Assembly: GCA_041651095.1 (NCBI GenBank)
Contig: JBAZJV010000005.1
Coordinates: 1,160-65,159, forward strand
Length of the DNA: 64,000 bases
Source: Patescibacteria group bacterium
GTDB lineage: Bacteria > Patescibacteriota > Patescibacteriia > Patescibacteriales > UBA12465
Direction: 5' to 3'
Under the pieces are notes generated by a model. It saw only the letters and a list, made by a program, of their open reading frames with translations. It ran no database searches and was not told where the DNA came from. Each line of letters begins with the position of its first letter. The first letter of the stretch is position 1. The translations under genes were made by a program, and so were the position numbers. This document shows positions 5,051 to 64,000 of the stretch, piece after piece.

Positions 5051-5971
5051 TTATTTTTCTACTTCTACCGTCCGGCCTTTGGCGGTCGCGCTGATCCCCT
5101 GCCCGTCCGCCGGATCGACCTTGAAACTAATGCTTTCGCAATTCTTCATGGTCTCACCGAAATTTTCTTGCAGGAAGTGCAAGAAAGAATTCTCATGGCT
5201 GAAAGCCAGGACCTTGATATTTTTCTCCGGACCCTGCTCATTTATTTTCTGCTGGCCGAAGCGGATGAGCCGCATCATGTCTTTGAACTTAGTGTCATAG
5301 GCAGCCTTAGCCGATTTAACGGCCGGGAAAATTTTCTCTATTTCCGCAGAATGAGCAGCGTAGTTGTTGCCCCAGCTGCCTTTATCATCCGCTTCGATTA
5401 TCTGCCTGGCCTCGCGCCATTTCTGTCGCGTTTCTCCAGAGACTGTCGCCGTATCTTTCACGACTTCTTTTAAGATGTCTCGATTGGACGCGAAAACGAA
5501 TTCCTGCAGCATATTCTCCAGATGGTCTAACGTCAAGCTGTCTATTTTCCGGATATTGCCCTCGCCTATCTCCTCCGCTTTGTCGCGATAATTGCCGGCT
5601 ACGGCTTTCTCTCGCGGCTTGATAATCTCAAAGCCTCTGGCTCGCGCCTCGTCCAGATAAATCTTGGCCGTTTCCGCCGCCCGGACCAGATCGCTGGAAA
5701 CGAAAAACAAGGCGTCTTTGGCCGGATCGAGACGATTGAAAAACTCCTTGGCCTTTTCTTGCGCCAGTTTGAGGCCTTCCGGCGTCAGATCAGAATTGAA
5801 CCACTGCTTATCGGCGCTCGGCCTGGCTTCCGGATAATCTGAGCGAATAATGCTTTCATTCAGCTTATACTCCGCCAAGCTGTGCCGGGTGGCAAAAAAT
5901 TCGTCCTGATGGTCATCAGATCTTTTCTGGGCGTTGCCGGTTTCCAGATTGGCATTTTCAAATTTAGCCAT
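5051..5971 (-). CDS. histidine-phosphatase-superfamily (PGAM-like) protein, divergent, with a large insertion
   Basis: 306 aa. RH in FATRHSLAEY, LTPEGLKLAQEKA (like LTxxGxxQA), VSSDLVRAAETA (like SSPLxRAxQTA) and late FSHENSF (second His). Lies 5 nt upstream of the PfkB kinase gene. Confidence 0.55.
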   Translation of the reverse strand: MAKFENANLETGNAQKRSDDHQDEFFATRHSLAEYKLNESIIRSDYPEARPSADKQWFNSDLTPEGLKLAQEKAKEFFNRLDPAKDALFFVSSDLVRAAETAKIYLDEARARGFEIIKPREKAVAGNYRDKAEEIGEGNIRKIDSLTLDHLENMLQEFVFASNRDILKEVVKDTATVSGETRQKWREARQIIEADDKGSWGNNYAAHSAEIEKIFPAVKSAKAAYDTKFKDMMRLIRFGQQKINEQGPEKNIKVLAFSHENSFLHFLQENFGETMKNCESISFKVDPADGQGISATAKGRTVEVEK

Positions 5972-6018
5972 ATTGTTATAGTTATTATTTAATTTTACCT
6001 TAAAAACAACGAGAAATC

Positions 6019-6047
6019 AAAAAACGGGCCTAAATGGTCCGTTTTTT
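6019..6047. terminator. intrinsic terminator downstream of trpB (hairpin flanked by A- and T-runs)
   Basis: ACGGGCC-taaat-GGTCCGT, with A6 upstream and T6 downstream on the plus strand. It reads as stem plus U-run on both strands. Confidence 0.7.
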
Positions 6048-6065
6048 GATTATCCCGCCCAATGA

Positions 6066-7289
6066 TTATAACCCCAACCTCTCCGCCACGTAATCGATGT
6101 CCTTATCGCCCCTCCCGGACAAATTCACGATGATAATTTCGTCCTTCCCTAGCTTAGGCGCAAACTTTATGGCGTGCGCCAAGGCGTGCGCGCTTTCTAA
6201 AGCCGGAATGATGCCCTCTACCTTAGACAACAATTGGAAGGCCTCAAGCGCCTCCTGGTCGCTGGCCGTGACATACTCTACCCGGCCGCAGTCTTTGAGA
6301 TCGGAATGTATCGGCCCCACGCCCGGATAATCCAAACCGGAAGCGATGGAATGCACCGGCAAAGGTTCGCCTTGCTCATCCTGCAATAAATAGGTGAACA
6401 TGCCGTGGATATTGCCCGGCTGCCCCATGGTGAGCGTGGCGGCGTGCTCGCCCGGCTTGAAGCTCCGGCCGCTCGGCTCCACGCCGATCATCTTGACGTA
6501 GTAATCCGTTAGAAATTCGTTGAACAGGCCGATGGCGTTGGAACCGCCGCCCACGCAAGCAATGAGATAGTCCGGCAAGCGGCCGGCCTGTTCCAGGATC
6601 TGCACCCTGGCTTCCCTGCCGACCACGGATTGGAAATCGCGCACCATCATCGGGAACGGATGCGGACCCACGACCGAACCGATGCCGAAAAAAATATTTT
6701 GCGGATCCTGCACGAAAGCCATAAATGCACTATCGACCGCATCCTTCAAACAGCGGCCGCCCGCCTTGACGGCGACCACTTTGGCGCCTAAGAGCTGCAT
6801 GCGGATAACGTTCGGATGCTGCTTGGCGATATCGATTTCACCCATGTGGATCTCGCATTCAATGCCGACCAAAGCGGCCGCCGTGGCCAAAGCGACGCCG
6901 TGCTGGCCGGCGCCGGTTTCCGCTATCAACTTTTTCTTCCCCATGCGTTTAGCCAGTAGCGCCTCGCCCAAAGTATGATTGATCTTATGCGCGCCGGTGT
7001 GATTCAGGTCTTCCCGCTTCAGATATATTTTCGCCCCGCCTAAGCGTTCCGACAAATTCTTGGCATAGTATAGCGGCGACTGCCGACCCACATAGTCTTT
7101 CAGGAGCTGTTCATATTCCGCGCGGAAAGCCGGATCGGCCTGCGCTTTATGATACTCGACCGCGATCTCATCGAAGATCGGTTTCAGTTCCGGCGGAATT
7201 ATCTGTCCGCCGTACTTCCCAAAATAGCCGGCCGCGTCCGGCAAGGCCCGGAAAGCGACCTGGTCTTTAGTTTTAGTATTATTGTTCAT
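6066..7289 (-). CDS. trpB: tryptophan synthase beta chain
   Basis: 407 aa. PLP-lysine context [14 protein letters not shown], plus [16 protein letters not shown] and GLDYPGVGP blocks. No trpA adjacent. Confidence 0.95.
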
Positions 7290-18839: not shown

Positions 18840-19664
18840 ATGCATAACAATCAATTTAAACTATGCGCGAAGGGATCGCGCCGGATCGGGGCGAAATTTG
18901 TCGCTGAGACCGAATACTTGGCCGGCTTGGTTAACTGCCTAGAAATCGACTGCAACTATCCGCACGATCGGAATTTCCAGCGCGAACTCTCCTACTTGAC
19001 CCGTTTACATCGCAACCGGCATATTAACTTTACCGTCCATGCCCAGTATGTAAGCGGCGGACTGAACGACCTTAACCCGCGCATCCGACAGGAAACCCTG
19101 CGACAAGCCTTTTATGCTATTGATTGCGCCGCTAAGATAGGCTCTGAAGTGGTTACTATGCATCCGGCTTTAGAGCCATACGGCTGGAAACTGTCGGAAT
19201 TACCAACTTTGGAACTAACGTCTTATCGCCGAATCGCCAAATATGCGGCTCGAAAAAAAATCAAAATCGGTTTGGAGAACGAAGCACAGACCTGTTTCTG
19301 GTTTCCGGATCGCGCTTGCCGTATTCAATTGCTTGTTAAAACAATCGAGGCGGTTAGCTCTCCGAATTTCGGGCTCACGTTGGATATCGGCCACGCCAAT
19401 ATAAGCAGCGAAGATTACTTATCGACAATTAAAAAATATCGTAACCATATTTTTCATATCCATATCCACGATAACTGGGGCGGACCAGCGAATAATCTGA
19501 AGTATAACCACCGGCCTGATCCGCACCTAGCTCCGGGCCACGGAAAAATCAATTGGCGCCAAGTCAAAAAAGCCATTAGACAAATAGACTATCGTGGCTA
19601 TGTAGAATTAGAATGTGAAATTAAAGATATAGCGGCTGCTATTAAATATTTTCAAAAATTATAA
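18840..19664 (+). CDS. sugar phosphate isomerase/epimerase (xylose-isomerase-like TIM barrel)
   Basis: 274 aa. VTMHP, GLENE and HIHIHDNWGG blocks typical of the AP-endonuclease-2/TIM-barrel family. Confidence 0.75.
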   Translation: MHNNQFKLCAKGSRRIGAKFVAETEYLAGLVNCLEIDCNYPHDRNFQRELSYLTRLHRNRHINFTVHAQYVSGGLNDLNPRIRQETLRQAFYAIDCAAKIGSEVVTMHPALEPYGWKLSELPTLELTSYRRIAKYAARKKIKIGLENEAQTCFWFPDRACRIQLLVKTIEAVSSPNFGLTLDIGHANISSEDYLSTIKKYRNHIFHIHIHDNWGGPANNLKYNHRPDPHLAPGHGKINWRQVKKAIRQIDYRGYVELECEIKDIAAAIKYFQKL

Positions 19665-19772
19665 TTGACATATCTACCAAATTATTATAGAGTAAAATGA
19701 TTAAATGGCATTCAAGAAATACCATATAAATCATAATAATCGTTCATTTATCAACTAAAACGGAGGTTTCAA

Positions 19773-20279
19773 ATGAAAAAGATTCAAATAGTAACTATTG
19801 GCTCCTGCCAGGATCCGGCGTCATTGACGCCATCGGAAATGGGCAAGTTGAACAATATTCTCAACAGTCAAAAACTGTGGCCATTACCGAAAATAGTAGT
19901 CGGCGGCAACGGAGAACGTTTCGAACAGGCGGCGCGCCAGTGGCTTAATCGCCCGATAACGCTGGTTAATGATATCTGCGCGCTGTGGCTGGACACTATC
20001 CATGTCGAGATAAAACCGACCAGAAAGCTCAAAGAATATGAATTAGACTCTTTAGGTCTGCCCATGGCTTTATGCGACTTTATTGATACGCTGCCTGATC
20101 ATAGCCTGATTATATTGGAACATCCAGCTATATTGCTTAATGATTCAACTATAGTCACTTCTGACGGGTTGCTGATTGAACTGGAAATCCCTGACTACAT
20201 GTACGGCGCGCGTACCGATGAAGAAAAAGGATCCTATACTATATTGGTTGCCAATCAGACCGCTGCCAAAGTAGCTTAA
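19773..20279 (+). CDS. hypothetical protein, degenerate SixA/histidine-phosphatase-like fold (paralogue 1)
   Basis: 168 aa, SD GGAGG. KIQIVTIGSC...LTPSEMGKL...VVGGNGERFEQAARQW...LIILEHPAIL aligns by eye to the RHG...LTxxG...SPxxRAxQT...SH layout, but the RHG residues are replaced. Confidence 0.4.
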   Translation: MKKIQIVTIGSCQDPASLTPSEMGKLNNILNSQKLWPLPKIVVGGNGERFEQAARQWLNRPITLVNDICALWLDTIHVEIKPTRKLKEYELDSLGLPMALCDFIDTLPDHSLIILEHPAILLNDSTIVTSDGLLIELEIPDYMYGARTDEEKGSYTILVANQTAAKVA

Positions 20280-20353
20280 ATTCCCATACGAAATCCGGAC
20301 TCTACGGCTCAAATCCGCCGCCTGACCGGCAACGACTGTCCACCTCTTTTTTG

Positions 20354-20384
20354 ATCCGCGTCATTCCAAAACGCGGATTTTTTA
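20354..20384 (+). terminator. intrinsic terminator
   Basis: ATCCGCG-(11 nt)-CGCGGAT followed by T7. Confidence 0.7.
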
Positions 20385-20415
20385 TTGACAAATATCCGGC
20401 AATATGAATTAATAT
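20385..20415 (+). promoter_or_regulatory. candidate promoter (TTGACA ... TAATAT)
   Basis: TTGACA at 20385-20390, directly after the terminator. AT-rich -10 candidates lie at 20408-20415; spacing is ambiguous (17-19 nt). Confidence 0.4.
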
Positions 20416-20475
20416 AAGCAAATATTCAAGATTAATCTAATCAGTTCATTCCTAACTATCTACGGAGTAAAAATA

Positions 20476-20979
20476 ATGAAGACTAAAATCATCTTCCTGG
20501 TAACTGTCGGCGACGTCATGAACGGCACCATCAACCCCCGCTTGAGCAGCAAAGGCAAAGAACAAATCCAACGCTTAGCGGCAGCCAAATTATTACCGGA
20601 TGAACCTTATCTGGTTATCCGCGGCACGGGACAGGGGCACAAGGACACGGCAGAGATACTGGGTTGGGAGAATATCGATCACCCCGGTGTAAAAAACAGC
20701 CAAAGGATCTGCCTCAGCCAGTGTTGCGGCCAGGCCGATGTCAAAGTCGGAGAAAAGATCCTGACCGGCAGCGGCGATTATAGCTTGAAAAATTTCCTGA
20801 TCCACGATACCCGGCAATTCTTAATGAAACAGGAAGGCCAGACCGTCATGATCGTCGATCAGATTTTTATGATGGGACTGGGAATTACGGGAGCTAAAAA
20901 AGCCTCTATCTATAAGGCTGTTTGCGAAGCCGAATCCAATACCGGCTACAACTGCGAGTTGATCTACTCCGCCAATTGA
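20476..20979 (+). CDS. hypothetical protein, degenerate SixA/histidine-phosphatase-like fold (paralogue 2)
   Basis: 167 aa. IIFLVTVGDV...RLSSKGKEQIQRLAAAKL...VIRGTGQGHKDTAEIL...VMIVDQIFMMGL has the same layout as SixA-size phosphatases, but with Arg/His catalytic positions substituted. Confidence 0.4.
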   Translation: MKTKIIFLVTVGDVMNGTINPRLSSKGKEQIQRLAAAKLLPDEPYLVIRGTGQGHKDTAEILGWENIDHPGVKNSQRICLSQCCGQADVKVGEKILTGSGDYSLKNFLIHDTRQFLMKQEGQTVMIVDQIFMMGLGITGAKKASIYKAVCEAESNTGYNCELIYSAN

Positions 20980-21095: not shown

Positions 21096-22229
21096 TTATT
21101 TTTTAAGCCAATCTATCAGATTTTGATAGAATTCCAAATTATTCAGGCTAGCCAGCCGGGCGCCCAGCGGCTCGTTCAGGCGGAACAGGTGATGCAGATA
21201 AGACTTGGCATGACGGCGCAGCGCCGGCAAGGCGCTGGCGGGACTAATCGGCGTTAAATCCCGGGCAAATCTGGCATTATTGATATTTATGGTTTGATAA
21301 GACGGTTTGGTGCGTCTCGCTATTTTACTTGCTGCGGCGGTTCTCCGACTGCCGGCCAGGAACAATTTGCCGTGCCGACCTTCGCGGGTCGGTATAACGC
21401 AATCGAACATGTCCCAGCCCATCCGGGCGCAACGGATAATATCTTCCGGCGTACCGATGCCCAAAGCGAAACGTAAGGCATCGGCCGGAATAAAAGCAGC
21501 GGTCCGGCGCAATACCTCGCCCAGGAATTTCCCTTCCTGGTCTACCGGCCGGGCGCCGAAACCATAACCGTCAAAACCGATTTTTACCAGTTCCTTGGTG
21601 CAATGTTCGCGCAGGTCGATTTCCGCGCCGCCCTGGATGACCGCAAAGAGCAGCGGCCGGCGACGGCCGCTTAAACCGTGTTTTTTTATCTGACGCTCAT
21701 ATTCTCTCTTGCATCTCTTGGCCCAGGCGATCGTCCGCTCAACCGCCCGTTCCAGATCCGGCCGGGAAAATTCGTTAGGCGGGCAATCATCCAGACAGAC
21801 CATCATATCCACGCCCAAGTCGAATTGGATCTGGATGGATTTTTCCGGCGTAAGTACATGGCGCGAACCGTCGAGCGGCGACCGGAAGACGACTTCCCGG
21901 TCGCTGATCCGGCCCATTTTCCGGTTCTTGTGGATCAGGGAAAAAACCTGGAAGCCGCCGGAATCCGACAGGAGCGGCCCGGACCAGTCCATGAACTCAT
22001 GGAGGCCGCCGGCCCGCTTGATAGCGGCGAGTCCCGGCTGGAGATAAAGATGAAAAGTATTAACGACCAAAGCCGCCGTCCTGGTCTGCCGAACGGCTTC
22101 ATTGTCTGTCAATTTGACAAAACCGCGGGTCGCGTCCGGCATATAGAACGGCGTCTTAATGACGCCGTGTCCGGTCCGCAGGGTGCCGAGCCGCAGTCCA
22201 GGCTTAGTTATCCGGTCAACTTTGAACAT
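21096..22229 (-). CDS. tgt: tRNA-guanine transglycosylase homologue (zinc-site-less variant)
   Basis: 377 aa. TPFYMPDATRGFVK, LSDSGGFQV and GWDMFDCVIPTR (nucleophile Asp context). There is no Cys after FDCV, so the CxCxxC...H zinc motif is absent. Confidence 0.85.
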   Translation of the reverse strand: MFKVDRITKPGLRLGTLRTGHGVIKTPFYMPDATRGFVKLTDNEAVRQTRTAALVVNTFHLYLQPGLAAIKRAGGLHEFMDWSGPLLSDSGGFQVFSLIHKNRKMGRISDREVVFRSPLDGSRHVLTPEKSIQIQFDLGVDMMVCLDDCPPNEFSRPDLERAVERTIAWAKRCKREYERQIKKHGLSGRRRPLLFAVIQGGAEIDLREHCTKELVKIGFDGYGFGARPVDQEGKFLGEVLRRTAAFIPADALRFALGIGTPEDIIRCARMGWDMFDCVIPTREGRHGKLFLAGSRRTAAASKIARRTKPSYQTININNARFARDLTPISPASALPALRRHAKSYLHHLFRLNEPLGARLASLNNLEFYQNLIDWLKK

Positions 22230-50714: not shown

Positions 50715-51224
50715 TTATTTTTTGATGCTTATACTGTTTTGATAGTGATCTGCGAATAGCGCCAAAATTTGTTTGGGGTTGGCGTGCCGGGACAAGCCAA
50801 TGATATTCTTCATGAATTTGGCGGCCTGCTGCTGTTCGGGCGGACGATTACTTAAAAGGCATAGAGTCCTTAAGCTGATCGGATAAATAATTCCCTGTTC
50901 ATCATGATTATTCGCTGCATGGGTCCGATTGATCAGCTTGGTCGAACAATGAAAATCGGCGCAACACATCATATCGTATCTGGCCTTCCCATTTTTAATG
51001 GTAAATTGAACAACTTTATGCCGGCCGCAAAAACAATAAGGTATGGTTGGCAGATTTTCACCGGCGCTGAACAAAAAATTGAGATGTGAGACTAAAGCGC
51101 AATCCGGCGATCTTAGCAAACTGATCGCGGCGGCCGGATCCTGAAAAATAAGAGTTTCGACTGCCTGACCCTCATATCGACCTGAGGACAGAAAATAGGG
51201 TTGTTCGGGAATCTCTGAAATCAT
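50715..51224 (-). CDS. hypothetical Cys-rich protein (paralogue B)
   Basis: 169 aa from ATG 51224 (SD GAGGAG). Blocks HLNFLFSAGENLP, CFCG and MCCADFHC. The track ORF extends to 51359 only by reading through tRNA-Leu. Confidence 0.65.
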   Translation of the reverse strand: MISEIPEQPYFLSSGRYEGQAVETLIFQDPAAAISLLRSPDCALVSHLNFLFSAGENLPTIPYCFCGRHKVVQFTIKNGKARYDMMCCADFHCSTKLINRTHAANNHDEQGIIYPISLRTLCLLSNRPPEQQQAAKFMKNIIGLSRHANPKQILALFADHYQNSISIKK

Positions 51225-51281
51225 AGAACTACTCCTCGTATAGATTGATGGATGATATTGTTTATTAATGAACCAGAACGG

Positions 51282-51365
51282 TGCCCGAGGGGGGATTTGA
51301 ACCCCCATGGGATTGCTCCCACAGCGCCCTGAACGCTGCGTGTCTACCAATTTCACCACCCGGGC
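51282..51365 (-). tRNA. tRNA-Leu (anticodon CAG), CCA not encoded
   Basis: Manual cloverleaf: acceptor GCCCGGG/CTCGGGC (one G-U), anticodon stem CAGCG/CGCTG with loop TTCAGGG, long variable arm TGGGAGCAATCCCAT, T-arm GGGGG-TTCAAAT-CCCCC, discriminator A followed by CCG. Confidence 0.93.
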
Positions 51366-60400: not shown

Positions 60401-62069
60401 AAACTAATAAAGTATTGGTTTCTAGAAGGGGCTTCACATAAGACCGCTGGTTCAGCCACAGATAACCGATAAAATCTAGCTCCTTGGCTAGGATGATATA
60501 GCGGACGGGCGAATTTAGAACGGGCGGACCGTTTTTCCCCCGCTCCGCCAGCCAGGCAGCCACGGCCGCGCCGTCTGGACTCTGGCTATTGTCATAGATA
60601 CCGCCCCACTCCATATTAGTGCCGCTTAATACCGGACAAGTGAAAAAAACCGGCGCCGGGTTAGCAATTATCTTGCCCACCCAATTAAAACTCATATACA
60701 AATGCCAAGGCAGGAACAGAATCCGATCAGAACAGTCATCGGACTGGGCGGAGCGATTGACCAGAAACTTATCGACCTGATACCAATCGTCCGGATATAG
60801 CGTAGGCACGACCTGGCGATTGAAGCCCCAGAGCAAAGAGGGCGTCTGCATGACAATAACCGCGCCCAAGATAAAGCCGGCGACCATCCGGTTGGCGGCG
60901 ATGATCTTGAACTGCCTGAGCCTGGCCGCACCGATAGTCAGATAATAAAGATAAATCGGGATAATGACCGCCACCCATTTCTGCGGTTCGCGCAGGCCTT
61001 TATAGAACGGCAGATGATCGTATAGGAATAGGCTGAAGCCGCGCGTCGCTGGCGTCTTGATGCCGAGAGCGAGGACAACGGCCAAGGCAAAGACAAACAA
61101 TAAGCCGGCGCTGAACATTTTCTCTGGTCTTGAACGTTTCCAGAAACTCAAATAAATGCCGTAGATAATTATCGGCGCTAGGAATAAGAAGCTGCGCTGC
61201 CAGCCGGCGACATCCGTCAAGTCAGCATAACGGAACTGGTCTTTGCCCCAGAAGCCGGACATCATAAGCACATTTGACAGAGCGCCCCAGCTAGTTTTGC
61301 CGGCCGTCTGGAAAACTATGAGGTCGTGGTTGGTGATTCCCTGCCCGACGAAAGCTGCCAAAGAAGAATGTCTGATAGCCAGAGCAATCAGCCAATTAGC
61401 GTTTAGAACTAGGACGATAGCGACAGATAAGAGCAATGAAACCAATAATTTCTGGCCGCCATTTTTCGCCTTGATCTCGCCACGCCTTGAATAAAGATTA
61501 ATGAAAAATAGGATATAAAAAGGCAAGAGCAGAAAGACAAAATGGGCGGAAAACATGATGGCTAAAGCGCTAAAGATGGCTGATTGCCAGATATATTTAA
61601 AATCCAAATTCGGCCCAACAGCGAGCAATTTAGCCAGTGCGAATAGCAGAAATCCATAAGATAATAAGACGCCGAACTGACCGTATAGGGCACGGTCGTA
61701 GACAAAAGGGTTGAATAAGAAGAATAAAGAAAAAACAAAACTTAAACAAGCGGACATCACGTCATCTTTGAAGGCAGATAATTGCAATATGGTGTAAACT
61801 AAAGCCCGGCCAGCAACGAGCAGTAGTAAAAAAACAGCGCCGATAAACATTTTCTCCAAAAATGCCAACGGAATAATGGAAGCCAGCCCTCTGACAAGCA
61901 GATTAAACAAAAACCAGGGAGCGTACCAATTAAGTGTAATATTCGGCCCCCATACCATATCGGTCATAAAAAGATAACCGGATTTTAAGAACCAGGGACA
62001 AGCTATGAAGATTATCATCAGAATATACGACCAATATTTATAAAAAAAATTTTTAATTATTTTTTTCAT
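60384..62069 (-). CDS. large polytopic membrane protein, possible GT-C-type glycosyltransferase
   Basis: 561 aa. Many TM helices followed by a soluble C-terminal domain. Its start directly abuts the stop of the upstream AT-rich gene. Confidence 0.5.
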   Translation of the reverse strand: MKKIIKNFFYKYWSYILMIIFIACPWFLKSGYLFMTDMVWGPNITLNWYAPWFLFNLLVRGLASIIPLAFLEKMFIGAVFLLLLVAGRALVYTILQLSAFKDDVMSACLSFVFSLFFLFNPFVYDRALYGQFGVLLSYGFLLFALAKLLAVGPNLDFKYIWQSAIFSALAIMFSAHFVFLLLPFYILFFINLYSRRGEIKAKNGGQKLLVSLLLSVAIVLVLNANWLIALAIRHSSLAAFVGQGITNHDLIVFQTAGKTSWGALSNVLMMSGFWGKDQFRYADLTDVAGWQRSFLFLAPIIIYGIYLSFWKRSRPEKMFSAGLLFVFALAVVLALGIKTPATRGFSLFLYDHLPFYKGLREPQKWVAVIIPIYLYYLTIGAARLRQFKIIAANRMVAGFILGAVIVMQTPSLLWGFNRQVVPTLYPDDWYQVDKFLVNRSAQSDDCSDRILFLPWHLYMSFNWVGKIIANPAPVFFTCPVLSGTNMEWGGIYDNSQSPDGAAVAAWLAERGKNGPPVLNSPVRYIILAKELDFIGYLWLNQRSYVKPLLETNTLLVYEIKS

Positions 62070-63989
62070 TTATAGCTTGCTGTTATTTCTAGTAAAATTT
62101 TTTAAAATATCTATCGATATCTTAAAAATAAATAATAAATATACAAAACCAATTATAGCTGATAGATATATCGCATTATCGTTATTATAATCATATAAAG
62201 AATGTGAATTAATATTAGTGATATACAATTCTAAATCATCTTCATTAATTATCCCCGTATAATCATCTGTAATGATCATATTATTAATTTGCGAAATACA
62301 ATTTATATCTATATCAAAACCCTGGTATAAATTATTATCAACGTAATCAAATATCTTTGAGCGATAGCCGCCTAAACGGCATTGATTAAATTTGGCGCCG
62401 ACTAAATATGATTTAATTATATTCCCTCTGTCCAAATTTTTAATTATCAAAAATACTCTGAAATTATTTTTGTTAATATTTTTATTGTCAGTTATTTCCG
62501 GAATCAATGAAGATTTATAAATATTATCGTTTCGAAAAAATAGAGTACCATCATGGATCTTATCTATCTTATAGGTAGCAAATATTATTCCCCTATGAAA
62601 CACCCCCCTAGAAAAAGCGATGCTATTATTATCTAATCCATATAAAATAAATGAATAAATTACCTGGGTATAAATTATAAAAATAAAAATCCAAAGCAGT
62701 GCAACAAATTTAAAATACGCAGTAACGTTAATTATATTTTTTGTTTTTTTATCGAAAAAAATTAAAATAATTGCTGAACTTAAAATAAAAAGAACTATAA
62801 ATTCCCCAGTTACATATTTAGAAGTAATCGAAGCATCGTTCAAGGCTAAAGGGGTAAAATGATTAAAAATATCCAAAAAAAAGGTACGGGCCCCCAATTC
62901 ATTTTTCAATGAATAAATAGAGCCAACCACTGTTAGAGATATAAATGACCACAGTAAATTTTCATTATCTATAATTAAAAGTATTAATAAAGGCACTAAC
63001 CAAGATAAATAATGGATTTGGAAATTACCAATTAAGACCAAAAAATAAAACAGAAAAAGCAGCACATCTTTAATAAAAGTCAAAATATTGTAATCTTTCT
63101 TTTTATAAAAAATTAAAATAAATCTATAACAAAAATGAAAAAATAATATTATTAAAATTAAAAAAATGCCACGATTACTTATATTAAACAATAGAGCATT
63201 CTTTAAATTACTAATCGGCGCCAGGCCCAAAATATTGTTAATAGATGAAAAAAGATTTAACGGCGGCATTTTTTTCTCCAAAATCATAATTGGAGTATTT
63301 GCTCGAGAAAGTGAAATTATAGAATTAAAATTCTTACTAACCAAAGAGAAATCAAAGAAAAAATGTATATAAGAAAACAGTAAAAAGGCAAGAAAAACTA
63401 ACAAAGCCTTTCTACCGATCTTAATTTCTTTGTTAGCATAAAAATAAAATACTAAAAAGGGGAAAATTAGAAGAATAAAATATTTAGTTGTAAAAGCAAG
63501 GCCCAGTGATAATCCTATTAGCCAATAATTCTTTTTTAATAATCCTAAAATCAAAATAATAATTGAAAATGGAATTAATATCTCATAATGACCATGAATA
63601 CCGTAAACATAATAAATTAATGGGTTCAAAAACCACATTAAAAATCCCAACCTAGCTTTATCATCATCATTATATAAAAAATTAACTATCTTATAAATCA
63701 AAAACCCGCTGATAAGGTCCACTAGTAGAAATGGAATTTTAAAAACAAAATGTAAGAGGAGCAGCTGATCCGGAGGGATAGAAAACATTTTTAGAATAAC
63801 TAAGTACAAGGAATATAGAGGGTGCCATAATAAAATCAATAAATTACCTTTATTCCAAGATCCAAATATGCTTAAATTATAGATGGTATTCTGTTGGAAT
63901 GTATTAGCAAAGGTCCAGAAATCGTAAGGATGTGCGCTCCAAAAAATAAAAATTAGTTTTACCAAAAAAGTAAAAATTGTAATCTTCAA
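62070..63989 (-). CDS. extremely AT-rich polytopic membrane protein, GT-C-like (DUF2029/GT87-like loop FKIPFLLVDLISGFLIYK); 5' end may lie outside the window
   Basis: 639 aa from a TTG at 63989. The frame stays open to the window edge. Ile/Phe/Leu/Asn/Lys-rich. The TM-rich N-terminal half with TTKYFILLIFPFL resembles GT-C enzymes. Confidence 0.55.
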   Translation of the reverse strand: MKITIFTFLVKLIFIFWSAHPYDFWTFANTFQQNTIYNLSIFGSWNKGNLLILLWHPLYSLYLVILKMFSIPPDQLLLLHFVFKIPFLLVDLISGFLIYKIVNFLYNDDDKARLGFLMWFLNPLIYYVYGIHGHYEILIPFSIIILILGLLKKNYWLIGLSLGLAFTTKYFILLIFPFLVFYFYANKEIKIGRKALLVFLAFLLFSYIHFFFDFSLVSKNFNSIISLSRANTPIMILEKKMPPLNLFSSINNILGLAPISNLKNALLFNISNRGIFLILIILFFHFCYRFILIFYKKKDYNILTFIKDVLLFLFYFLVLIGNFQIHYLSWLVPLLILLIIDNENLLWSFISLTVVGSIYSLKNELGARTFFLDIFNHFTPLALNDASITSKYVTGEFIVLFILSSAIILIFFDKKTKNIINVTAYFKFVALLWIFIFIIYTQVIYSFILYGLDNNSIAFSRGVFHRGIIFATYKIDKIHDGTLFFRNDNIYKSSLIPEITDNKNINKNNFRVFLIIKNLDRGNIIKSYLVGAKFNQCRLGGYRSKIFDYVDNNLYQGFDIDINCISQINNMIITDDYTGIINEDDLELYITNINSHSLYDYNNDNAIYLSAIIGFVYLLFIFKISIDILKNFTRNNSKL

Positions 63990-64000
63990 AAAATTTTTTT

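Follow-up and report, generated by a model that had tools for sequence, protein, structure and literature searches.

The tgt gene and its product

The locus at positions 21096..22229, read on the minus strand as are all features given below, is a tgt gene encoding a zinc-ligand-less tRNA-guanine(34) transglycosylase (Tgt) of 377 aa, and the whole 64-kb stretch of DNA in which it lies is referred to here as the window. The open reading frame starts with ATG, contains no internal stops and is closed by a stop codon at 21096-21098, and an identical protein is recorded in NCBI as a Patescibacteria Tgt. The product matches Pfam TGT (PF01702) at 1e-101 and scores 327.4 bits against the TIGR00430 equivalog, which passes the cutoff of 306.75; its best solved relatives in HMMER searches are the Tgts of Escherichia coli (3e-77) and Zymomonas mobilis (4e-73).

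The AF2 model of the protein (pLDDT 91, pTM 0.89) was superposed by Foldseek on Z. mobilis Tgt with a TM of 0.86-0.88 and an rmsd of 2.2 Å over about 378 columns, the identity in the structural alignment being about 35%. The N-terminal strands are found in the model (E3-7, E13-19, E22-25 and E28-32), and the alignment to bacterial Tgt extends over the full length. The catalytic Asp in LSDSGGFQV is D89 (21963..21965; Z. mobilis D102), which is invariant in 120/120 relatives, and the base-recognising Asp is D147 (21789..21791; Z. mobilis D156), followed by D148, where E157 is changed to D, and by C149, where C158 is kept. The nucleophile in GWDMFDCV was placed at D276 (21402..21404; Z. mobilis D280) by HMMER and the relatives' alignment. 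In Z. mobilis numbering, D102, S103, Q107, D156, C158, Q203, G229, G261 and D280 are invariant among the 120 relatives. A preliminary description of this DNA had regarded the N-terminal part as ordinary Tgt, with fold and catalytic aspartates preserved, and both statements are borne out: TPFYMPDATRGFVK, LSDSGGFQV and GWDMFDCV all occur in the frame, and D102, D156 and D280 accompany a TM of 0.87 to Z. mobilis Tgt.

Of the dimer hot spots, K52, F92, Y330, H333 and E339 (Z. mobilis numbering) are likewise retained; W326 is represented by His, and most of the other Tgts examined also have Y, F or H there. Length comparison and pLDDT delimit a lineage-variable insertion at residues 291-310 (LAGSRRTAAASKIARRTKPS; 21300..21359), which lies in the hairpin after GKLF. 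This hairpin segment counts 12 aa in Z. mobilis, 17 aa in the commonest form of the family and 30 aa here; residues 296-305 have a pLDDT <50, and the hairpin, 18 aa longer than that of Z. mobilis, is probably disordered according to the model.

Replacement of the zinc site

The C-terminal subdomain (residues 311-377; 21099..21299) binds the structural zinc in every Tgt, ArcTGT and DpdA enzyme characterised so far. In the present protein it is predicted at a pLDDT of 92-98, and the superposition on Z. mobilis Tgt, being full-length, takes it in as well. Residues were placed by HMMER alignment to the solved E. coli and Z. mobilis Tgts together with MAFFT alignments. In a gap-free stretch, S332-A-L334-P-A-L337 (21219..21236) stands in place of C318-x-C320-x-x-C323, so that C318 corresponds to S332, C320 to L334 and C323 to L337, while the His349 ligand is replaced by N363 (21141..21143; SLNNLEFY against TEHNIAFY). 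The closest relatives carry S in 120/120, L/I in 117/120, L in 117/120 and N in 117/120 at these four positions, respectively. The loss of the CxCxxC and His ligands to Ser, Leu, Leu and Asn, as first read from the sequence, was reproduced by both alignment methods. The lack of any cysteine after FDCV is confirmed too: the last one is C277, and the final 100 residues contain none. The segment ININN...HHL, formerly assigned to 21135-21257, is actually encoded at 21186-21290.

Bacteria, archaea and eukaryotes have been stated to share an absolute conservation of the zinc ligands of Tgt, and sequences without them were thrown out as suspect in one analysis (PMC3074131); no description of a zinc-less Tgt was found in the literature. 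The suggestion that the site has found a lineage-specific structural solution is favored by several observations, namely the fixation of S-x-[L/I]-x-x-L...N throughout a large clade on which purifying selection acts, the confident prediction of the C-terminal subdomain and its superposition on that of Z. mobilis Tgt, and the retained dimer hot spots.

It is quite improbable that the metal is instead retained through different, shifted ligands, for which His340, His346, His347 and several Asp/Glu residues in the C-terminal subdomain could be proposed. His346 and His347, however, form the HH pair that is conserved throughout the Tgts, and His340 is variable; moreover, no Cys follows C277, the residues fixed at the old positions (Ser, Leu, Leu and Asn) are not metal ligands, and the same Ser...Leu...Asn pattern is met in other zinc-ligand-less lineages. 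Outside the four ligand positions, only weak signals of compensating change were detected, namely Glu at Z. mobilis position 322 and His at position 290, the latter being enriched in zinc-ligand-less sequences (27/29, compared with 54/101 of the others), which would be the other point in favor of shifted coordination.

Rebuilding of the base pocket

The second departure from bacterial Tgt (EC 2.4.2.29), whose loop signature is GGL[AS]VGE, is located in the pocket loop, where G225-A-R-P-V-D-Q231 (21537..21557), placed by HMMER and the relatives' alignment, takes the position of G229-G-L-A-V-G-E235, so that the alteration of the GGLAVGE region noted earlier can be specified as GARPVDQ. A226, R227, P228 and D230 are fixed in 118-120/120 relatives, position 233 (Z. 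mobilis numbering) is Val/Ile in 120/120, and position 235 varies among K, E, Q and A. The substitutions Y258F, M260L and E157D co-occur with the GARPVD loop, whereas the base-recognising residues S103, Q203 and G229 are common to this protein and the Z. mobilis and E. coli enzymes.

P228 coincides with the Leu231/Ala232 peptide switch of Z. mobilis Tgt. In the canonical enzyme this peptide flips to offer either its N-H to guanine N7 or its C=O to the aminomethyl group of preQ1, and Glu235 holds it (PMC3660597). Because Pro232 has no amide N-H, the flip cannot operate as described. Glu235 was found to covary with residue 232, being present in 76/83 representatives with Ala/Ser232 and in 5/27 with Pro232, and its lack of conservation in the Pro232 Tgts corresponds with its role as the partner of the switch.

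These changes raise the question whether G34 of tRNA is still the site of exchange with an altered base specificity, the enzyme accepting queuine directly, preQ0 or another 7-deazaguanine. The GARPVD loop matches neither the GGLAVG (preQ1) nor the GG[LS][AS]G (queuine salvage) signature (PMC11570991), and the accompanying Y258F, M260L and E157D would fit such a change. The pocket itself speaks against both named bases. The queuine-salvaging eukaryotic QTRT1 and the bTGT of Chlamydia trachomatis, which share the superfamily and catalytic residues with the present protein and also belong to reduced, host-dependent genomes, keep the zinc site and carry GG[LS][AS]G, in which residue 233 is small and admits the cyclopentenediol, while the bulky Val/Ile retained here clashes with queuine in Z. 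mobilis Tgt (PMC11570991). Recognition of preQ0, like that of guanine, makes use of the amide N-H that Pro232 lacks (PMC3660597), which argues for an aminomethyl substrate. Altered base specificity is considered unlikely.

Conservation and evolutionary pattern

The comparison covered the 120 closest relatives, which are 70-80% identical, the named ones being assigned to Patescibacteria/Falkowbacteria. Mean column identity among them is 65%, and the zinc-ligand and loop substitutions are fixed in 117-120/120; judged from this alignment, the shared substitutions are far from chance. The dN/dS of tgt genes of this type is 0.07-0.13, with dS saturated, and the synteny around the gene is conserved among relatives.

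It had been allowed that the gene might be a pseudogene in decay, to which a remnant without activity may be added as a possibility. Loss of all four ligands could be taken in that sense, the site having been reported to be essential and conserved absolutely (PMC3074131). Selection and conservation all but rule this reading out: the frame is intact, dN/dS and synteny are as given above, the substitutions are fixed, and no catalytic residue varies among the 120 relatives, which are 70-80% identical.

The loss of the zinc ligands and the change in the loop, formerly treated as a single event, proved to be separable, since the sister clade (Moranbacteria type) combines an intact CCCH site with a similar loop, G[AG]RH[IV]D, and zinc-less Tgts with canonical loops exist elsewhere. 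Ligand loss recurs in other Tgt lineages with the canonical loop (27/131 representatives). The distribution of these sequences indicates that the loop type is older than the zinc loss. Misalignment as the source of the apparent losses in other lineages was ruled out, the last 100 residues containing 0-2 Cys. As a separate observation, the C-terminal part of the present protein is relatively closer to zinc-less, canonical-loop Tgts of the Candidate Phyla Radiation (CPR) than its N-terminal part is.

Queuosine genes and genomic context

The genes queA and queH and a Q-precursor transporter gene are absent from the 64-kb window in searches with CPR seeds and in a Pfam scan that covered essentially every ORF of at least 150 aa, and the Pfam scan of the ORFs revealed no preQ1 synthesis genes in the window either. 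Evidence for a link with the pathway accordingly comes from relatives, which share 58-72% identity with the present Tgt. At locus L013 (Ca. Falkowbacteria), queA (PF02547, 2.5e-100), queH (PF02677, 5.9e-64) and tgt abut or overlap, while L088/L089 harbor queA-tgt operons and L090/L091 harbor queA-queH-tgt operons. The Tgts of these loci, which represent three relatives, bear S[LI]LN together with GARPVD and share 58-60% identity with the present one, so that the linkage of bacterial Tgt with queA/queH is seen in its relatives. A zinc-deficient Tgt with SCSH at the zinc positions (L059) also adjoins queA. The small gene that follows tgt in the queA operons was considered as a Q-precursor transporter and rejected, since it is non-homologous between loci, not hydrophobic and without a Pfam match. 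QueA is widespread in Patescibacteria, and a zinc-less Tgt, P0110, probably shares one 809,082-bp JGI/NCBI contig with the QueA protein P0327, so that one near-complete genome very probably carries both QueA and a Tgt of the type described here. Other neighbors of such tgt genes encode GT4, DUF4012, DUF11, PK, enolase and RlmN. Literature searches on queuosine in CPR/Patescibacteria and on Q genes in Saccharibacteria/Parcubacteria returned nothing relevant; the CPR taxa looked for in the tgt-only survey (PMC11570991) go unmentioned there, CPR is likewise unmentioned in the transporter paper, and the DPANN paper covers QueA-QueH-Tgt in archaea only.

The operons also bear on the base that is inserted. 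CPR bacteria have reduced genomes and may rely on salvage, which together with the lack of preQ1 synthesis genes in the window would suit a changed base specificity. Nevertheless, QueA acts on preQ1-tRNA and QueH on epoxyqueuosine-tRNA, so a tight operon of these genes with a Tgt that inserts queuine directly would be pointless. The changed substrate or target proposed in the preliminary description finds no support, for the operons of relatives (queA-queH-tgt or queA-tgt) contain Tgts that bear exactly this signature.

A further proposal, that the gene is a Tgt paralogue acting on a nucleic-acid target other than tRNA G34, either DNA as DpdA does or rRNA, calls for comparison with other branches of the superfamily. 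DpdA has the TIM-barrel fold and catalytic aspartates in common with the present protein; it possesses its own insertions, is 9-13% identical to TGTs and keeps the same zinc site, and it is missing the N-terminal beta strands, the lid, that the model retains here (PMC10164549). No DpdA profile in PADLOC matches at E 0.01 or below, and neither dpd nor phage genes stand beside the gene or its relatives, which speaks against the non-tRNA target suggested earlier. ArcTGT (TIGR00432) shares the catalytic domain superfamily but keeps the zinc site, uses preQ0 and carries C-terminal accessory (PUA-containing) domains that are missing here, the protein ending at 377 aa; its profile gives 77 bits against a cutoff of 350 and matches only residues 13-96.

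The case for rRNA stems from Tgt-like genes outside the CPR with a GG[W/F]P-x-D loop (GGWPLD) and an intact CCCH site, which share P232, D234 and L260 with the present protein, whereas the latter has A230/R231 and no zinc ligands. In 8/9 loci they are followed immediately downstream by a gene for an FmrO-family 16S rRNA methyltransferase, rsmH and rsmI are frequent flanking genes, queA is not found nearby, and a crude NJ tree sets this group nearest to the clade studied here; the loop class is consequently not uniformly queuosine-linked. On the other hand, no FmrO neighbor occurs in the window or in the loci of 17 relatives, the protein scores above the Tgt equivalog cutoff, the queA/queH operons carry the same Tgt signature, and one Tgt locus per assembly was seen among 80 genome loci retrieved in a non-exhaustive scan. 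A target other than G34 is therefore regarded as highly unlikely.

Proposed function and significance

Taken together, the gene is best interpreted, with a probability of roughly 0.7, as the functional tRNA-guanine(34) transglycosylase of its organism, zinc-free and most likely inserting preQ1 at G34. The enzyme would exchange G34 of tRNA-Asp/Asn/His/Tyr, the tRNAs with GUN anticodons, for preQ1, which QueA and QueH would then turn into queuosine as in other bacteria. Leu334 and Leu337 are envisaged to pack as a small hydrophobic core, with Ser332 and Asn363 providing a polar contact, and in this way both the C-terminal subdomain and the dimer interface may be kept in place without a metal ion. 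On the side of the base pocket that faces the 7-substituent, the wall is rebuilt as G-A-R-P-V-D, its loop presumably locked in the carbonyl-in, preQ1-type state, possibly with the aid of the invariant Arg231 and Asp234.

What is new here is a variant of a known enzyme, a Tgt that is devoid of zinc ligands and has a rebuilt pocket wall. The existence of a large, strongly selected CPR clade without any of the four ligands, together with the recurrent loss in other Tgt lineages, implies that the zinc site is dispensable for the Tgt fold and, very probably, for function. Zinc-less Tgts could thus serve as natural templates for the role of the zinc subdomain in dimerisation and tRNA docking, and the term "zinc-binding" passed to such proteins by automated annotation would be wrong. 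That zinc can be spared by enzymes of queuosine synthesis, and by tRNA enzymes in general, has precedents in QueD2, FolE1B/FolE2 and bacterial GluRS without the zinc motif (PMC9894224, PMC11672702, PMC4381286), and the pathway, whose zinc-sparing paralogues are familiar, would gain a metal-free step. Whereas QueD2 and FolE1B represent alternative paralogues that often come into use when zinc is limiting, the zinc-free Tgt seems to be a sole, constitutive copy, and it has lost a structural rather than a catalytic metal. The proline-blocked peptide switch, in turn, represents a natural experiment on the discrimination between guanine and preQ1 by Tgt.

A broader conjecture, to which a low probability is assigned, is that the whole branch with an x-P-x-D loop, the zinc-free CPR clade included, exchanges bases unlike the textbook Tgt and has a different base or RNA specificity, for instance for an extra substrate in addition to tRNA G34. 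Lacking both the peptide switch and Glu235, the branch could differ in specificity, and if so, the present enzyme would amount to more than an ordinary Tgt stripped of its metal. Outside the CPR, the GGWPLD members are consistently paired with RsmH/RsmI and a methyltransferase of the 16S rRNA G1405 type, which hints in the same direction.

Family Assignment and the Altered Hallmarks

The intact minus-strand ORF at 21096–22229 of the window encodes a Tgt of 377 aa, which is matched by the Pfam TGT model at 1e-101 and passes the NCBIfam equivalog model TIGR00430 for tRNA guanosine(34) transglycosylase (327 bits, cutoff 306.75), fails the archaeosine model (77, with 350 needed), and has no match among the PADLOC models for defence/DpdA. 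Among solved structures, E. coli Tgt (3e-77) comes closest, followed by Z. mobilis Tgt (4e-73), and a deposited protein identical to it is annotated as Tgt in a MAG labelled "Patescibacteria group bacterium". The catalytic D102, D156, and D280 (Z. mobilis numbering, as for the site positions below) are retained in the alignment as D89, D147, and D276, and S103, Q107, C158, Q203, G229, and G261 are also kept according to MAFFT. On homology, the protein is therefore assigned to the bacterial Tgts, and it is very probably one by function as well, despite failing two traits usually given as hallmarks of the family, namely the zinc site and the GGL[AS]VGE switch loop.

The HMMER alignment with E. 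coli and Z. mobilis Tgt crosses the zinc region without gaps: the three cysteines of C-x-C-x-x-C are matched by Ser, Leu, and Leu, the His ligand by Asn, and GGLAVGE by GARPVDQ; MAFFT placed all of these residues identically. The preliminary description, which reported the loss of the four ligands and of the GGLAVGE loop, was thus correct, and the zinc segment ININN...HHL that it cited is present, although its coordinates were slightly off and should be 21186–21290. A mere shift of the ligands is contradicted by the gap-free alignment and by the absence of any cysteine from the last 100 residues.

At least 120 database clusters comprise close relatives that are 70–80% identical to the window protein, and those bearing an organism name belong to Patescibacteria or Candidatus Falkowbacteria. 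Ser at C318 and Ala at G230 occur in 120/120 relatives, Pro at A232 and Asp at G234 in 119/120, Arg at L231 in 118/120, and Leu/Ile at C320, Leu at C323, and Asn at H349 in 117/120 each. Compared codon by codon with two relatives, the window gene has a dN/dS of 0.07–0.13, with synonymous sites saturated. Since the ORF is intact, the dN/dS is low, and the changes are fixed in the 120 relatives, the gene is not a decaying pseudogene, and the altered ligands and loop are a feature of the lineage.

Proposed Structural Replacement of the Zinc Site

An AlphaFold2 model built from the 120-sequence alignment reached a mean pLDDT of 91 and a pTM of 0.89, and the superposition on Z. mobilis Tgt, which had been proposed as a check, revealed a match over the full fold (Foldseek TM 0.86–0.88, rmsd ~2.2 Å, ~378 columns). 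The C-terminal subdomain 311–377, the usual zinc holder, displayed a pLDDT of 92–98, AlphaFold confidence being distinct from proof of metal independence. Values below 50 were confined to residues 296–305, part of the hairpin after GKLF that varies in length across the family (30 aa in this protein, 12 aa in Z. mobilis, mostly 17 aa elsewhere), and the dimer-interface hot spots K52, F92, Y330, H333, and E339 are conserved. In place of the metal, Leu334 and Leu337 (numbering of the window protein) would pack as a mini-core, and Ser332 and Asn363 may form a polar contact. The suggestion that this lineage has its own structural substitute for the zinc is supported.

Chen and Garcia regarded the four zinc ligands as absolutely conserved in the TGTs of all three kingdoms and dropped ligand-lacking sequences from their dataset (PMC3074131), a textbook generalization that is corrected here. 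DpdA, too, has the CxCx2Cx22H site, which PMC10164549 presents as a conserved trait of DpdA and the TGTs alike. In the literature, neither a zinc-less Tgt nor peculiarities of Patescibacteria (CPR) Tgts were found. Because zinc-sparing paralogues, QueD2 and FolE1B, are known in the queuosine pathway (PMC11672702), and a zinc motif is missing in some bacterial GluRS (PMC4381286), a metal-free Tgt is plausible and would not be revolutionary.

Separate Histories of Zinc Loss and Loop Change

When 1.84 billion cluster representatives were scanned in full with HMMER, 150 further, more distant relatives were retrieved. Alignment with references and a crude NJ tree, from which the zinc and loop columns were left out, divided the family into a clade with canonical GGL[AS]VGE loops and one with G-G-[W/R/Y]-[P/H]-x-D loops, the latter usually also having F/H258, L260, and D157. 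The nearest sisters of the window protein (P0121 from Candidatus Moranbacteria, P0122, and loci L012, L018–L026, and L028) have the same kind of loop with an intact CCCH site, implying that the loop change came earlier and the zinc loss is derived. The reverse case also occurs, the ligands being lost from many Tgts whose loop is fully canonical, with patterns (C318/C320/C323/H349) including SFLN, SLLN, N-LN, SCAA, and SASQ; such Tgts are found in Kuenenbacteria, Buchananbacteria, another Falkowbacteria genome, and a group that adjoins Z. mobilis Tgt in the tree. They comprise the cluster representatives P0156, P0178, P0179, P0191, P0127/P0157, P0164/P0166, P0175/P0189, and P0200/P0230/P0266 and loci L029–L033, L035–L037, L040, L042, L044, L047, L051, L059, and L075. 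At least two ligands are absent from 27/131 near-full-length representatives in this sample biased towards relatives of the window protein, and 18 of these 27 have a canonical loop. The two changes are thus separable.

Among 29 zinc-less sequences, Ser318 was found in 15, Leu323 in 10, and Asn349 in 8, and each in 0/101 zinc-containing ones, which indicates a replacement convergent in kind. The C-terminal part of the window protein is 49% identical to zinc-less canonical-loop CPR Tgts and 47% to the zinc-containing sister clade, in contrast with 45% and 62%, respectively, for its N-terminal part; this pattern fits either convergence or a mosaic origin.

The Pocket Loop and the Peptide Switch

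The Leu231/Ala232 peptide of Z. mobilis Tgt changes orientation in the course of the reaction: when preQ1 occupies the pocket, the peptide carbonyl is turned inward and the amide N-H is bonded to Glu235, and when guanine occupies it, the N-H is turned inward instead (PMC3660597). Pro232 has no amide N-H, so neither N-H arrangement is possible, and the Pro232 clade constitutes a natural experiment on this switch. Within the clade, position 235 alone varies in the loop (K/E/Q/A), and Glu235 occurs in 76/83 representatives with Ala/Ser232 and in 5/27 with Pro232, a distribution consistent with a lost switch. The loop would be fixed carbonyl-in, suiting the aminomethyl group of preQ1, with Arg231 and Asp234, both invariant, perhaps stiffening it or touching the substrate. 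It fits neither of the published signatures, GGLAVG in preQ1 enzymes and GG[LS][AS]G in queuine salvagers (PMC11570991); the CPR taxa looked for were absent from that survey, which covered order, class, and family ranks.

Linkage to the Queuosine Pathway

Species-representative genomes were scanned, giving 80 loci with organism names; E. coli QueA then served as a seed, and each Tgt was classified. In Candidatus Falkowbacteria RIFOXYC2_FULL_47_12 (L013), a Tgt reading SLLN and GARPVD is encoded after queA (2.5e-100) and queH (5.9e-64, both Pfam), the three genes abutting or overlapping. With a CPR QueA as the query, QueA proved common in Patescibacteria, and its closest homologues disclosed further operons, queA-tgt (L088/L089) and queA-queH-tgt (L090/L091), whose Tgts carry S[LI]LN and GARPVD and are 58–60% identical to the window protein. 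Moreover, an 809,082-bp JGI/NCBI contig is on record for QueA P0327 as well as for the zinc-less Tgt P0110 (72% identical to the window protein), so that the two very probably come from one genome, and the zinc-deficient L059 Tgt (SCSH) adjoins queA.

The survey of related genomes for queuosine genes thus placed Tgts of the same signature in queA/queH operons, leaving the alternative of a changed substrate or target unsupported. Since preQ1-tRNA is the substrate of QueA and epoxyqueuosine-tRNA is reduced by QueH (PMC8204110), the simplest reading is preQ1 insertion at G34 by Tgts of this type, with which the proposed carbonyl-in loop would agree, and the role of the enzyme appears ordinary. 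No queA, queH, preQ synthesis, or transporter gene lies within the 64-kb window, which says little for a CPR genome expected to be around 1 Mb.

Directly upstream of queA-queH, the CPR operons harbor genes for a response-regulator receiver protein and for a small ferredoxin of 59–83 aa (L088 162–770, L090 4320–4943, L091 2321–2944, L092 4329–4953); as QueH is an iron-sulfur enzyme, this ferredoxin might be its electron donor. A 23S_rRNA_IVP gene is situated between queH and tgt in both L090 and L091. The zinc-less tgt of L090 (7174–8324) is broken into ORFs of 312 and 60 aa by a 7-nt deletion that is missing from the otherwise identical L091 copy (5203–6360), which could be a population frameshift variant or an assembly error.

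FmrO-Linked Tgt-Like Genes

Outside CPR, in Clostridia/Bacillota, Defluviitaleaceae, and Latescibacterota, a Tgt-like gene was encountered that combines a GGWPLD/GGFPAD loop with an intact CCCH site. In 8/9 loci it is directly followed by a gene of the FmrO family of 16S rRNA G1405-N7 methyltransferases (PF07091; E 8e-33, 4e-45), namely L046 (11102–11941), L049, L053, L054, L061 (9605–10489), L074, L078, and L083 (11017–11784). Often flanked by rsmI and rsmH/mraW (e.g., L061 7633–8562, L049 2879–4087, L054 1563–3107) and never adjoined by queA, it may be an uncharacterised paralogue tied to 16S rRNA helix 44 modification.

Genomic Surroundings and Record Labels

The gene order around tgt is common to the relatives: GT4, DUF4012, DUF11, tgt, (pyruvate kinase, enolase), metallophosphoesterase, and RlmN-like radical SAM. 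Three plus-strand genes at 18840–20979, an AP_endonuc_2/xylose-isomerase-like TIM-barrel (274 aa) and two without Pfam match (168 and 167 aa), separate tgt from pyruvate kinase in the window and look like a local insertion, since pyruvate kinase directly follows tgt in the relative L003.

Many MAG records labelled "uncultured Gammaproteobacteria bacterium" or "Bdellovibrionales bacterium" (L008–L011, L014–L017, L023, L025, L026, and others) contain Tgts 53–69% identical to the window protein, and their query-type members share the CPR-type DUF4012/DUF11 synteny; these labels are probably wrong.

Just two tRNAs, Val(CAC) and Leu(CAG), are encoded in the window, and neither is a Tgt substrate; the mechanically listed 214-aa ORF at 50715–51359 is probably no real gene because it overlaps tRNA-Leu(CAG) (51280–51365) on the same strand. 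At ~62,000, the GC content drops abruptly from ~50% to ~25% (62001–64000). This region consists of one minus-strand ORF (62070–63989, 639 aa, no Pfam match), whose translation reads as a putative polytopic membrane protein and which abuts a likewise membrane-like 561-aa ORF of normal composition beside a Polysacc_synt gene; it may be a glycan-related gene gained by horizontal transfer, or the assembly may be chimeric here.
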